Shown here: in pieces, positions 4,391-61,483 of the stretch
Layout of the letters: the number at the start of each line of letters is the position of its first letter
Position numbering within the stretch: position 1 is the first letter of the stretch
Assembly (NCBI GenBank): GCA_951406725.2
Contig: OX597819.1
Location: 61,442,001 to 61,506,000 of the forward strand
Direction of reading: 5' to 3'
DNA length: 64,000 nucleotides
DNA from: Octopus vulgaris
Taxonomy: Eukaryota
Translations under genes and position numbers: made by a program
The notes under the pieces: model-generated
Told to the model about the DNA's origin: nothing
Databases searched by the model: none
What the model saw: only the letters and a program-made list of their open reading frames with translations

Positions 4391-5076
4391 TAAAGGACAG
4401 GGTTTGTTTTTTACTTTACCGGAAATAACAGAATCAAACGACCTAAATGTATCCGTTTTCGTCTATTTCTGCATTCAAAGCAGTAGAAATAAGCTATTCA
4501 TGCAGTAACCATATACAAAAAATGTATTGAAATTTCATTTTTCATAATATACATACATACATACATACATACATATATATATATATATAAATGAGTAAAT
4601 ATTCAAAATGAATACTCGATAAGGTATTATTATAATTGTTGTTATTACTATCAGCAGTAAAGAACGATACGAAATTTTGTTTCAACCCTTTGCCTATCTA
4701 TCTATCCATCCATCTATCTATCTATCCATCTGTCTATCTATCTGTATACGATGGGTGTATGTGTATATATATATATATATATATATATAATTTCAACAAT
4801 TGAGGGTAAAATTAATTGATTATTAATTAATTTCACCAAGTGTTCAGTATGCAAAGGGACCATTTAAGGCGAATTCAAATTATTACAATATATAAAAGGG
4901 CTTAGTAAAATAAATTACTTTGCCGCATACTGAACTCATTAGAAATAGCAGCTAAAAAACTTTTTTAAAAACCATTTCTAATACTTAAAGAAAATCTCTC
5001 TCATATAGTGTTTGGTCAACTCAACTCACGAAAGTTTGGGGGTAAAGACATCAAAAAATCAAATGCAAAGGTTATT

Positions 5077-5128
5077 TGAGAACGTACGTTTCAAGATTAG
5101 TCATCACGACACTTCTATCATCAGCTCA
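5077..5128 (-). ncRNA. Type I hammerhead ribozyme motif (560-bp unit, left arm)
   Basis: Reverse complement of the motif at 5843-5894. Confidence 0.65.
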
Positions 5129-5842
5129 GAAACTCCTTGGTTTGGATTTGAAAACACTGAAAGTGAGAGCATACTCTTTCGGCCTCTCATCGCTTTCGAA
5201 GATCTGCTCGTAACTAACAGTGCCAACAAACTCAAACATGCAAGCGAAGAATTTCTGCTTTCCCCTTTCCACCAGCGTGGGTTAAAATCAACAAACACTC
5301 TGCTTATTTCGGTAAAATCCGAAGCATTAATTAGAGGAGATTAATTATAATTTCAACAATTGAGGGTAAAATTAATTGATTATTAATTAATTTCACCAAG
5401 TGTTCAGTATGCAAAGGGACCATTTAAGGCGAATTCAAATTATTACAATATATAAAAGGGCTTAGTAAAATAAATTACTTTGCCGCATACTGAACTCATT
5501 AGAAATAGCAGCTAAAAAACTTTTTTAAAAACCATTTCTAATACTTAAAGAAAATCTCTCTCATATAGTGTTTGGTCAACTCAACTCACGAAAGTTAATT
5601 TTACCCTCAATTGTTGAAATTATAATTAATCTCCCTCTAATTAATGCTTCGGATTTTACCGAAATAAGCAGAGTGTTTGTTGATTTTAACCCACGCTGGT
5701 GGAAAGGGGAGAGCAGAAATTCTTCGCTTGCATGTTTGAGTTTGTTGGCACTGTTAGTTACGAGCAGATCTTCGAAAGCGATGAGAGGCCGAAAGAGTAT
5801 GCTCTCACTTTCAGTGTTTTCAAATCCAAACCAAGGAGTTTC

Positions 5843-5894
5843 TGAGCTGATGATAGAAGTGTCGTGATGACTAATCTTGAAACGTACGTTCTCA
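5843..5894 (+). ncRNA. Type I hammerhead ribozyme motif (560-bp unit, right arm)
   Basis: TGAG-CTGATGA-[T AGA..GTC gtgat GAC..TCT T]-GAAAC-GTAC-GTT-CTCA: stem I TGAG/CTCA, canonical core, palindromic stem III ACGTACGT, GUU triplet. Confidence 0.65.
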
Positions 5895-6484
5895 AATAAC
5901 CTTTGCATTTGATTTTTTGATGTCTTTACCCCCAAACTTTCGTGAGTTGAGTTGACCAAACACTATATGAGAGAGATTTTCTTTAAGTATTAGAAATGGT
6001 TTTTAAAAAAGTTTTTTAGCTGCTATTTCTAATGAGTTCAGTATGCGGCAAAGTAATTTATTTTACTAAGCCCTTTTATATATTGTAATATATATATATA
6101 TATATATAGGCATATAATGCACACACACACACAAGACTGTGTGCGTTTGAATGCCTCACTTAAATGGATATACTACAGGGAGACACACAACTGCAGTCTC
6201 CGTCTTGACAAAGCATCTTCTATAGAAGTAGATTGCTAAAAGGCTCAAAAGTCTACACGAGATGTTGTCTCGAGACGAATACCAGTTTTATGACTTTCTA
6301 TGGTATATGAACGTTAAGTTAGATATACAGGATGCTGGTTTGAAATAAAACTGCTTCCATCGCTAATAACGAATGCATGCATATTTATAAATGTGTGTAT
6401 ATGAATGTACGTATGTGTTTTTTTTCTTTTCACTTCATTTCTTAGAGATTCTTTTCTGATAAAAGACGTGCATTTCGTTTGCAG

Positions 6485-6621
6485 GATAAGCGCCGTGTCT
6501 GTCAACATTACAGTCTCCAATTTGGACTACAATCAAATCCTGTCTTCAGATATGGGAAATTACACTTGTGTGTCTCGTGTCGGAGACTACAGTATTCAGG
6601 CGCGCATTCATCTAAAAGCCG
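6485..6621 (+). CDS. Exon encoding C-terminal half of the Ig domain
   Basis: tttgcag acceptor, phase 2 start (AG+G = Arg). ISAVSVNITVSNLDYNQILSSDMGNYTCVSRVGDYSIQARIHLKA contains the D-x-G-x-Y-x-C Ig signature. Donor G|gtgagt at 6622, phase 1. Confidence 0.85.
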
Positions 6622-6629
6622 GTGAGTAT

Positions 6630-58062: not shown

Positions 58063-59675
58063 ATATATATCGAGATTCTGTTATTTTATAACCTTCTATT
58101 CATTCTTTCTCGCGTAGCAAGTTATTTTGATCGGCCATTTTATTACTCATAGATATGTCTTGGAAGGAATACCAAAAGTTCATCAGCAGATGGGTAGGCG
58201 AGATTGGCCCCCTTTATGACACGTCTTTTGCACTGTCACGTAGCATGTTATTATAAGTTCAGAAATGTGGGAGACCTTCTGTCAACACCTGGCATATGAC
58301 ATCATATTGCTAGGTTTGGGGTCCATTAACTGCAGGACACTCAGAAAAATGTTTCGAGTGCTACAACAATTACCAAAAAGCAACAAAAAAAGCAAAAGAC
58401 GAAAATGCCCCCAAGAGGCGTAGACATGGGTGTGTGATAAGGAGATTGCTTCCCAGCTATATGTTTCTGGGTTCAGTCCCACTGCATCGCAACTTGGGTA
58501 ATTCTTTTTTTACTATAGCCTCGGGTCGGCCCCAAACTCGTGAGTGGATTTAGTAGACGGAAACAGAAAAGAAGCCCGTCGTGTATGTATGTATATATAT
58601 ATATATATAAATATATATATATGTGTGTGTGTGTGTGTGTGTGTGTGTGTGTGTGTGTGTATTGTGTGTGTGTGCGTGTCTTTGTGTCTGTGTTTATCTC
58701 ATCATCACTGCTTGACAATTGCTGTTGGTGTGTTTACGTCCCCAAAACGCAGTTGTTCGGGAAACAAGACAAATTGGATAAATAGCTAGCTTGAAAAAAT
58801 AAGTACAGGGGTACATTCGTTCGACTAAAATTCTTCAAGGTTGTGTATTAATTTCTTTTGAAATATAATAAAACATTAACTTCGATGTGTAATTAAATAT
58901 GAATTTTTATTAAATGTGTATTTAAATATGAATAATTGGAAGTATTAATATTTACTAAATGAAGCGGTGAGCTGGCAGAAACCTTCCTTTGTCGGACGGA
59001 ATGCTTAGCGGTATTTCGTCCGTCTTAACGATCTGAGTTTAAATTCCGCCAAGATTAACTTTACATTTCATCATTTCGGAGCTGATAGAATAGATACCAA
59101 GGTCGATGTAATCGAAATATTTCCTCCCTCGAAATTGCTGGCCTTGTGTCCAAATTTGAAAGTAATCTTTTTATCCTTTATCAATACCGGTTGTCAAGCG
59201 GTGGTGGCAGAACAAACACACACACGAGCACACACGTACACAAACACACACACACACACACACACACACACACACACACACATATATATATATATATATA
59301 TATAACAGCCGAAATTTGCCATGATGAATCGGTTTCTGACTGAAGAACGAAGGCTCTGAATTACTGTCCGTTTTTCCGTGTTTGTCAATTCGTGAATTTC
59401 ACGTTCTTTATATATGTTTTATTATATATATATATATATATATATATATATATATATATAGCTATAAAAAATCTCTAAAAGAGATATAGACAGTAACTGC
59501 TCGATAACATAAGGGACTAAAGCCATCTGAATATGGCTAGGGACAGGGCAGGGTGGTGGGGGTGTTACTGTTGCATTTAGCCCCAGGCGAAAATCGACGT
59601 CACCAGAAAGGCTAGACACCGTCACGGTGTCCTTATCCTGCAAAGGGAGGTAATTCCCCGATGAAGCGGAAACCA

Positions 59676-59721
59676 CACACGGACCATGGTTTCAAGGTGT
59701 ATTGCCTATCGTCGGCGTGTG
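59676..59721 (-). ncRNA. Type I hammerhead motif, CCGACGA core variant (unit 1)
   Basis: Minus strand CACACG-CCGACGA-TAGG-caataca-CCTT-GAAAC-CATG-GTC-CGTGTG: 6-bp stem I, palindromic stem III ACCATGGT, GUC triplet. Confidence 0.72.
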
Positions 59722-60035
59722 GTAGGCTTCCGCTTCCTCGACGAATTCTCACTCTGCAGGATTTTCACATATAGATTTTCAAGCAAAATACATTTGCTGA
59801 TTTCGAAAATCTGTTCGAAAGCAATAATAATTCTCTAAAAGAGATATAGACAGTAACTGCTCGATAACATAAGGGACTAAAGCCATCTGAATATGGCTAG
59901 GGACAGGGCAGGGTGGTGGGGGTGTTACTGTTGCATTTAGCCCCAGGCGAACATCGACGTCACCAGAAAGGCTAGACACCGTCACGGTGTCCTTATCCTG
60001 CAAAGGGAGGTAATTCCCCGATGAAGCGGAAACCA

Positions 60036-60081
60036 CACACGGACCATGGTTTCAAGGTGTATTGCCTATCGTCGGCGTGTG
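60036..60081 (-). ncRNA. Type I hammerhead motif (unit 2)
   Basis: Identical to 59676-59721. Confidence 0.72.
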
Positions 60082-60395
60082 GTAGGCTTCCGCTTCCTCG
60101 ACGAATTCTCACTCTGCAGGATTTTCACATATAGATTTTCAAGCAAAATACATTTGCTGATTTCGAAAATCTGTTCGAAAGCAATAATAATTCTCTAAAA
60201 GAGATATAGACAGTAACTGCTCGATAACATAAGGGACTAAAGCCATCTGAATATGGCTAGGGACAGGGCAGGGTGGTGGGGGTGTTACTGTTGCATTTAG
60301 CCCCAGGCGAACATCGACGTCACCAGAAAGGCTAGACACCGTCACGGTGTCCTTATCCTGCAAAGGGAGGTAATTCCCCGATGAAGCGGAAACCA

Positions 60396-60441
60396 CACAC
60401 GGACCATGGTTTCAAGGTGTATTGCCTATCGTCGGCGTGTG
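60396..60441 (-). ncRNA. Type I hammerhead motif (unit 3)
   Basis: Identical to 59676-59721. Confidence 0.72.
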
Positions 60442-61483
60442 GTAGGCTTCCGCTTCCTCGACGAATTCTCACTCTGCAGGATTTTCACATATAGATTTTC
60501 AAGCAAAATACATTTGCTGATTTCGAAAATCTGTTCGAAAGCAATAATAATTCTCTAAAAGAGATATAGACAGTAACTGCTCGATAACATAAGGGACTAA
60601 AGCCATCTGAATATGGCTAGGGACAGGGCAGGGTGGTGGGGGTGTTGCTGTTGCATTTAGCCCCAGGCGAACATCGACGTCACCAGAAAGGCTAGACACC
60701 GTCACGGTGTCCATCGGGGAATTACCTCCCTTTGCAGGATAAGGACACCGTGACGGTGTCTAGCCTTTCTGGTGACGTCGATGTTCGCCTGGGGCTAAAT
60801 GCAACAGTAACACCCCCACCACCCTGCCCTGTCCCTAGCCATATTCAGATGGCTTTAGTCCCTTATGTTATATATATATATATATATATATATATATATA
60901 TATATATATATATATATATATATACACATGTATGTATATATGTATATATATATGTGTGTATCTCTCTCTTTTCAGTCATTTTTGACTGCGGCCATGCTGG
61001 AGCACCGCCTTTAGTCGAGCAAATCGACCCCGGGGCTTATTCTTTGTAAGCCCAGTACTTATTCTATCGGTCTCTTTTGTCAAACCACTAGGTGACGGGG
61101 ACGTAAACACACCAGCATCGGTTGTCAAGCAATGCTAGGGCGACAAACACACACAAACACATACACACACACACATATATATATATATACATAAATATAT
61201 ACGACAGGCTTCTTTCAGTTTCCGTCTACCAAATCCACTCACAAGGCATTGGTCGGCCCGGGGCTATAGCAGAAGACACTTGCCCAAGATGCCACGCAGT
61301 GGGACTGAACCCGAAACCATGTGGTTGCTTAGCAAGCTACTTACCACACAGCCACTCCTGCGCCTATATATACATATATATAATATAGTTGAAGTTTATA
61401 GAAAAACTAAAAAACAAAAGACGAAGACAGGTGTATGAACAACAAGGAAATGTATTAGTTTGACGCTCGTGAAAAATGAAAGT

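Follow-up and report, generated by a model that had tools for sequence, protein, structure and literature searches.

In a 64,000-nt stretch of Octopus vulgaris DNA (assembly GCA_951406725.2, contig OX597819.1, positions 61,442,001 to 61,506,000; hereafter the window), three elements with hammerhead motifs, termed E1 (4786-6090), E2 (19858-20289) and E3 (59460-60871), carry the insertion footprint of Penelope-like elements (PLEs): an inverted, 5'-truncated copy placed head-to-head, a 3' tail on one side only, and a microsatellite as target. We consider it very probable that all three were mobilised by PLE-type machinery. It is somewhat more probable than not that E1 and E3, which are of the retrozyme type, and E2 were inserted into (TA)n by the reverse transcriptase (RT) and endonuclease of a Neptune/Nematis-type PLE acting in trans, with priming from both sides of the target. 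The wider proposal, that PLE enzymes mobilise several unrelated octopus retrozyme families and that both arms of an insertion derive from one circular or multimeric RNA with two fixed internal start sites, is more tentative and falls a little short of an even prospect.

The elements and their target tracts, with the cores of the predicted hammerhead ribozymes (HHRs), lie as follows.
4764 to 4789, no strand: (TA)n target tract at the left end of E1, with 4 nt of TA microhomology to the unit
4786 to 5596, minus strand: E1 left arm, a 560-bp unit (4786-5345) and an identical 251-bp partial unit (5346-5596)
5077 to 5128, minus strand: E1 HHR, core at 5124, 4-bp helix I, palindromic 8-nt helix III, GUU cleavage triplet
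5595 to 6090, plus strand: E1 right arm, an inverted copy of 5375-4881 with 1 substitution and 1 homopolymer gap, HHR core at 5847
6088 to 6108, no strand: (TA)n target tract at the right end of E1
19786 to 19857, no strand: (TA)n target tract at the left end of E2, with 6 nt of TA microhomology
19858 to 20031, minus strand: E2 left arm, HHR core at 19994
20034 to 20289, plus strand: E2 right arm (arm proper 20034-20207), HHR core at 20071 with a 5-bp helix II and a GUA triplet
20297 to 20359, no strand: (TA)n target tract at the right end of E2
59423 to 59460, no strand: (TA)n target tract at the left end of E3, which doubles as the 3' tract of an older copy of family F4 (see below)
59460 to 60712, minus strand: E3 left arm, 3.5 tandem 360-bp units with 0-2 differing positions (inner start also given as 59472), HHR cores at 59715, 60075 and 60435
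60712 to 60871, plus strand: E3 right arm, 160 nt, identical to units 2 and 3, no HHR
60869 to 60924, no strand: (TA)n target tract at the right end of E3

An earlier interpretation made from the letters alone (the sequence-only reading) had proposed three unrelated units with divergent arms whose outer ends run into (TA)n, and each of these points was borne out. The HHR scan and the identity of the arms showed a head-to-head arrangement in 3/3 units, the sense strand running leftward in the left arms and rightward in the right arms. Each of the six outer ends is at most 12 nt from a (TA)n tract of at least 12 nt, or overlaps one; the same is true of 0.9% of window positions on a given side. 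The best BLASTN match between families had E = 0.22. At five of the six outer ends the continuation of the template beyond the end could be read from tandem or inverted copies, and four of these five testable ends share TA microhomology between template and target (4, 3, 6 and 3 nt; chance 0.4-4.4% per end). One arm per unit reaches further 3' than its partner, leaving a one-sided tail of 95 nt in E1, about 80 nt in E2 and about 43 nt in E3, a feature which the sequence-only reading had overlooked. The outer ends fall about 100-295 nt downstream of the predicted HHR cleavage site and never on it, which suggests that copying began inside the RNA. No target-site duplication is discernible in (TA)n. 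Single-armed TA-anchored insertions, namely a PLE and four copies of family F4, are present in the same window, so two arms are not obligatory.

The F4 copies (18765-18909, plus strand; about 19027-19330, minus; 51373-51855, plus; 59304-59423, plus) are 67-85% alike. Each is single-armed, has an HHR-like first core box without the canonical A15.1-U16.1 pair, and enters (TA)n at its 3' end; E3 is inserted in the TA tract of one of them. They are probably older PLE-type 3' ends.

The whole window was scanned with a descriptor for type-I HHRs (C3-G8 core, fully self-complementary helix III). This returned seven motifs, every one inside E1, E2 or E3, compared with a mean of 0.01 and a maximum of 1 in block-wise dinucleotide shuffles (n=100). 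The motifs have the HHR core (C3-x-G-A-N-G8-A9, GAAA and a UH triplet), with a helix I of 4-6 bp and a helix II of 3-5 bp, and their palindromic 8-nt helix III segments pair completely with a second copy (-5.8 to -11.2 kcal/mol), as expected of a dimeric fold. The seven motifs are thus predicted type-I hammerhead ribozymes of the PLE/retrozyme form. An Rfam search of the window gave no hammerhead family among the 150 of 191 matches listed; those were just sub-threshold microRNA (miRNA)-type matches on palindromes and microsatellites, and E2 matched miRNA models below the gathering score. Five of the six arms carry an HHR, but the right arm of E3 holds none; its polarity was therefore taken from its sequence identity with the left arm.

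Two further candidates were rejected. An HHR-like core on the plus strand of E3 (59658, 60018 and 60378), which would flip the polarity of the element, has neither helix I nor helix II and is the complement of the extended helix I of the true motif; ribozymes of both polarities in E3 seem unlikely. A second motif in E1 (5778 on the plus strand, 5193 on the minus) lacks one core base. It lies 69 nt upstream of the intact HHR, at the tip of a long hairpin, and has a self-complementary helix III. On the strength of this second motif, the E1 unit may be a fusion of two units.

E3 counts as a non-LTR retrozyme (LTR, long terminal repeat) under the sequence definition, with tandem units devoid of an open reading frame (ORF; longest ATG ORF 35 codons) and three HHRs in 3.5 x 360 bp. 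Its HHRs have a 6-bp helix I, a GUC triplet, and C rather than U at core position 4. Microhomology amounts to 1 nt at the centre and 3 nt of TA at the right outer end, and the tail lies in the left arm, with three A/T changes within its outermost 12 nt. E1 nearly answers to the same definition and is a putative protein-free tandem hammerhead repeat of this type. Its longest ATG ORF has 37 codons; with 1.45 units and one HHR per full unit it stays below the two-HHR criterion of preprint 10.64898/2026.07.22.740005. The tail (4786-4880) is in the left arm and missing from the right, and microhomology is 2 nt at the centre and 3 nt of TA at the right outer end. The right arm crosses the unit boundary exactly like the left arm, which indicates an ORF-less template, tandem or circular, that was already longer than one unit. 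In E2, a palindrome spans 19858-20207, its centre having a 2-nt spacer and 0 nt of microhomology; the tail extends from 20208 to about 20289 in the right arm. The sense sequence totals 256 nt, with 37 nt before the core and no sign of a repeat unit. E2 could be a third tandem hammerhead repeat or the 3' end of a PLE. The description of these units as non-autonomous ribozyme RNAs therefore holds for E1 and E3 as ORF-less tandem units, but cannot be extended to E2 from 256 nt.

E1 sequence occurs in public sequencing runs under four organism labels, with no RNA data set among those listed. Short-read contigs of four runs with three organism labels were mapped to E1 (559-4247 contig records per run). 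Summed depth, which is not a copy number, reached about 8e5 over the E1 unit and was mostly below 100 on the flanks. E1 is a very abundant dispersed multicopy family. An exact 23-base E1 pattern had no match in metagenome, prokaryote-genome or viral contigs. There were 36 E1-family joints, of which 15 were listed, 13 from run X1 and two from X6. Fourteen of the 15 run antisense into sense, that is head-to-head, at varied breakpoints, the remaining opposite-strand row is likely of the same kind, and none is tail-to-tail. Most X1 joints have a depth of 34-56, similar to the unique flanks. Inversions in independent reads, which the sequence-only reading had named as a check, are thus present in this family, at other breakpoints. 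One joint includes an arm that ends within the tail region (sense positions 214 and 149). A row of run X2 (6021 to 4950) was considered as a tail-to-tail joint; both positions are the same position of the unit, and it was therefore taken as a 29-letter insertion. No empty-site joint was among the rows listed, parts of the flanks being without cover.

At nine tabulated sites the window copy of E1 has the letter that is in the minority in X1 (share of the other letter 0.54-0.99), and the two arms agree at all nine. Site 5104 was excluded because of overlapping indel rows, and the shares are possibly biased, as reads fitting both arms are placed ambiguously. This agreement argues for one template or source locus rather than two random RNAs of the family, and for E1 it upholds the earlier claim that both arms stem from the same RNA species.

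A broken PLE lies between E1 and E2.
15508 to 17795, plus strand: broken PLE ORF, RT and C-terminal GIY-YIG endonuclease with a CX4CxxC linker, Neptune/Nematis type
17796 to 18747, plus strand: PLE 3' non-coding region, which enters (TA)n at 18748
The domain matches (RVT_1, E 9e-7; GIY-YIG, E 2.7e-4) are both slightly below the Pfam cut-off, and GxKF and DKG motifs are present. The protein is 45-59% identical to full-length homologues, and the best named match to the window's retroelement protein is 89% identical, from Octopus sinensis. The CX4CxxC pattern recurs in 59 of the 84 homologues of at least 700 aa (from 120 homologues); linkers of the CX2-5CxxC type have been assigned to the Neptune and Nematis clades, and a link to microsatellite bias has been offered as a hypothesis (PMC8557442). 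This PLE is a dead copy: it has an in-frame stop (16471-16473) and a frameshift (about 16869-16887) in place of an intact single ORF, starts at a (GTAT)n tract and is single-armed, and no upstream repeat was found as a 5' pseudo-LTR. About 70 nt before the (TA)n tract, a degenerate HHR-like motif of the U3-A8 form (about 18650-18681) was read by eye, with a weak helix I. Short repeats in the 3' region at 17966-18335 comprise four ATTGG and five TGACGTC motifs and are followed by TATAAA upstream of the HHR-like motif; together these form a candidate internal promoter. No sequence in common with E1-E3 was detected. Broken, single-armed and dissimilar, this PLE marks the type of enzyme and not the donor, and the suggestion that it was the source enzyme stands as to type only.

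Among 81 related PLE loci in public contigs, an HHR of like build, with a palindromic helix III as in E1-E3, shares the strand of the ORF in 40 and is opposite to it in two, so HHR sense was equated with RNA sense. Both opposite-strand HHRs lie beyond a TA tract. Some inverted match was found in 10 of the 81 contigs. Animal-type PLE proteins were also encountered in records whose labels name a bacterial genome bin or a symbiont (L001, L002; P0016, P0048, P0053, P0086, P0093), probably through host contamination.

In two-sided priming, a PLE enzyme acting in trans would cut both strands within (TA)n, and each target 3'-OH would pair over 3-6 nt with an internal start site, two such sites being available on one multimeric or circular RNA. 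The gap between these start sites would become the one-sided tail, and the two cDNAs would stop at variable points and be joined via 0-2 nt of microhomology. In LINE-1 twin priming, both primers are target 3' ends that use one RNA, and the resulting inversion is joined by microhomology; the two LINE-1 segments barely overlap, whereas the arms of E1-E3 copy the same region and have no poly(A) end. The sequence-only reading had the two cDNAs of E1-E3 joined at their 5' ends; the joined central ends are 5' in the RNA sense, which makes them the 3' ends of the cDNAs. In vitro, the PLE protein Poseidon of Anolis carolinensis is described as cutting and extending both strands, with AT-rich cut sites, and as using two internal RNA start sites whose spacing equals the genomic tail; insertion does not need HHR cleavage (PMC11167929). 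On the basis of these data we prefer two-sided priming. Poseidon differs from the window PLE in belonging to another clade, described without the linker, and the RNA used was autonomous; the inverted junction was not reconstituted in the experiments reported there.

Several observations weigh against this reading. The left end of E3, the fifth testable end, has just 1 nt of microhomology and three mismatches, and the E1 and E2 tails are longer than the 30-40 bp published for PLEs. The tail-less arm is entirely contained in the tail-bearing arm in 3/3 units. No autonomous partner with sequence in common with E1-E3 was found in the window PLE or the 81 related PLE contigs, the best match there (E 3e-4) being an AT-rich 40-mer and not convincing similarity. 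In the related loci, TA was within 250 nt downstream of the HHR in no more than 11/32 and upstream in 4/32, which is weak support, as many of the contigs are short or redundant. As for the short-read joints, 21 of the 36 are unlisted, 13 of the 15 listed come from one run, the tail-bearing arm is not visible in the contigs, and none of the contigs listed bridges the central junctions of E1-E3 in the window itself. Near-perfect palindromes (offset at most 10 nt) make up 4 of 17 E1-family joints (P 0.003-0.08 depending on the null; the count omits rows 5007-4990 and 5077-4962, of unstated kind).

The containment of one arm in the other and the near-perfect palindromes would suit a fold-back model with the same elements and the same PLE enzyme, in which priming occurs once, the cDNA 3' end folds on itself and the hairpin is copied towards the target; copying would stop short of the target, which accounts for the tail, and the far side would be joined by TA microhomology. 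The single haplotype of the E1 arms and the 2-nt spacer of the E2 palindrome fit this model too, and palindromes at inverted PLE junctions have been interpreted as self-priming (PMC3846280). Yet the central microhomology of 2, 0 and 1 nt (E1, E2, E3) is scant for self-priming, and the short arm of E3 matches units 2 and 3 exactly and is one base off the outermost unit, which it would have copied. The E1-family joint with an arm ending in the tail region suits two primers, if the arm is shorter than one unit, and both strands were extended in the Poseidon assays (PMC11167929). As an account of E1-E3, fold-back is less likely than not but a serious rival. Once PLE-type mobilisation is granted, it becomes a credible minority view, with two-sided priming the somewhat probable course. 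The present data do not separate the two: fold-back fits the same junctions, and of the earlier claim that both ends of a cut primed reverse transcription, PLE-type priming in (TA)n stands and two-sidedness does not.

The other accounts fare worse. Spontaneous breaks in (TA)n, with both ends patched with ribozyme cDNA by any RT, could draw on the 39 TA tracts of the window and on descriptions of TA repeats as break-prone and repaired by microhomology (PMC13645644, PMC9890227). Such endonuclease-independent capture is improbable: neither a one-sided tail nor ends at internal sites, both of them PLE signatures and present in three unrelated families, would be expected from it, and the window has a PLE which carries the linker associated with microsatellite bias and itself ends in (TA)n. 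Still less probable is that all the units are 5'-truncated PLE 3' ends (solo pseudo-LTRs) inserted in cis, with E1 and E3 later tandem-amplified as DNA. Related PLEs do have the same HHR type downstream of the ORF, and local amplification from PLE termini has been proposed (preprint 10.64898/2026.07.22.740005), but the E1 right arm crosses a unit boundary, so its template was already tandem or circular and ORF-less, and folding of the E1 and E3 units is far more stable than that of shuffled sequence (z -5.5 and -6.9, respectively). For E2 alone, where just 37 nt precede the core and no repeat unit was seen, the solo pseudo-LTR reading is quite possible, if below even. Least credible of all is a fold-back artefact of long-read sequencing or assembly. 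A telomere-type array in the window (33595-48380) contains 128 CCAGGG variants. Their complement has been reported as a nanopore miscall (10.1101/2022.01.11.475254), and the assembly may therefore rest on error-prone long reads; the window's own junctions are those without an independent bridging contig. However, the flanks of the units are not mirror images of one another and the arms of E1 and E2 differ at 1-3 sites, which argues against a folded-back read; the two arms have separate end points and separate TA tracts, and short-read contigs of two studies have the same type of junction at other breakpoints.

The two-armed TA architecture is not new, having already been published for PLEs (PMC8557442, PMC3846280). 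EN+ (endonuclease-bearing) PLEs of the Neptune and Nematis clades share with E1-E3 a partial tandem, an inverted 5'-truncated head-to-head copy, a one-sided tail (30-40 bp), a microsatellite bias, including TA, and a terminal-repeat HHR (PMC8557442, PMC3846280). Head-to-head is described as the most frequent inverted PLE arrangement, and action in trans with direct and inverted repeats has been reported in a rotifer (PMC3846280). E1-E3 differ from these PLEs in having no RT-endonuclease ORF and no detectable similarity to the local PLE, and in that two tails exceed 30-40 bp. In Schistosoma mansoni, HHR pairs 100-700 bp apart on opposite strands, a layout resembling that of E1-E3, were attributed to truncated PLEs, and a U3-A8 core variant was reported (PMC4209133). 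ORF-less tandem HHR repeats have been defined as non-LTR retrozymes with PLEs proposed as helpers (PMC7229834), a role backed by co-occurrence and phylogeny in preprint 10.64898/2026.07.22.740005, where one of nine predicted Xenopus retrozymes self-cleaved. The 560-bp E1 unit is above the 150-450 bp first described for retrozymes and within the 51-972 bp of that preprint. PMC7229834 uses neither "inverted" nor "microsatellite" in its main text; the preprint has "inverted" in a reference only and neither "tail" nor "orientation". Neither main text takes up inverted arms or tails. For O. vulgaris, a repeat annotation counts 31 Penelope-like families with recent activity; the word "ribozyme" is absent from its available text (PMC13282606). 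A literature search found no report of retrozyme inversion footprints or of octopus hammerheads; subscription papers, Repbase/Dfam and supplements might hold them. Junction-level evidence for retrozymes using PLE machinery may be novel.

The remainder of the window is rich in microsatellites. The telomere-type array consists of (CCCTAA)n followed by (TTAGGG)n, with the G strands outward and many GGCCA/CCAGGG variants, and stops at a 100-N gap. Either an interstitial array or a chromosome end affected by read errors or mis-joining could account for it. Three related coding remnants (25343-26773, 49037-49574 and 52553-52699; 84% alike over 522 bp) lie among (TAA)n/(ATG)n tracts and presumably resemble Dong/R4 non-LTR elements, which target TAA, at their endonuclease end; a confident Pfam match was not obtained for these remnants. 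Two imperfect palindromes have no HHR (48804-48948, 88%, directly after an (ATA)n tract, and 8100-8199, 80%). Many of the window's TA tracts come from an abundant dispersed repeat in two parts, which has a CA/TA microsatellite inside it (11341-11866, 57570-58059, 60970-61364 and others). Also abundant is a repeat of about 180-250 bp resembling short interspersed elements, sometimes in 184-bp tandems (2241-2765, 6839-7094, 23101-23700, 54888-55122, 56449-56703 and others).

The helper enzyme of animal retrozymes has so far been argued from shared ribozymes, co-occurrence and phylogeny (PMC7229834, 10.64898/2026.07.22.740005). Insertion junctions speak to the question more directly, and the PLE footprint is borne here by three unrelated families. 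Palindromic TA-flanked units of this kind could be mislabelled as miniature inverted-repeat transposable elements or miRNA hairpins. The origin of the inverted ends, tails and microsatellite bias of PLEs has been named as open (PMC8557442). E1 is short, very abundant and polymorphic, and counting its copies in an assembly could tell two-sided priming from fold-back. If the proposed mobilisation is true, the many natural E1 junctions could settle how the inverted repeats and tails of PLEs are formed.

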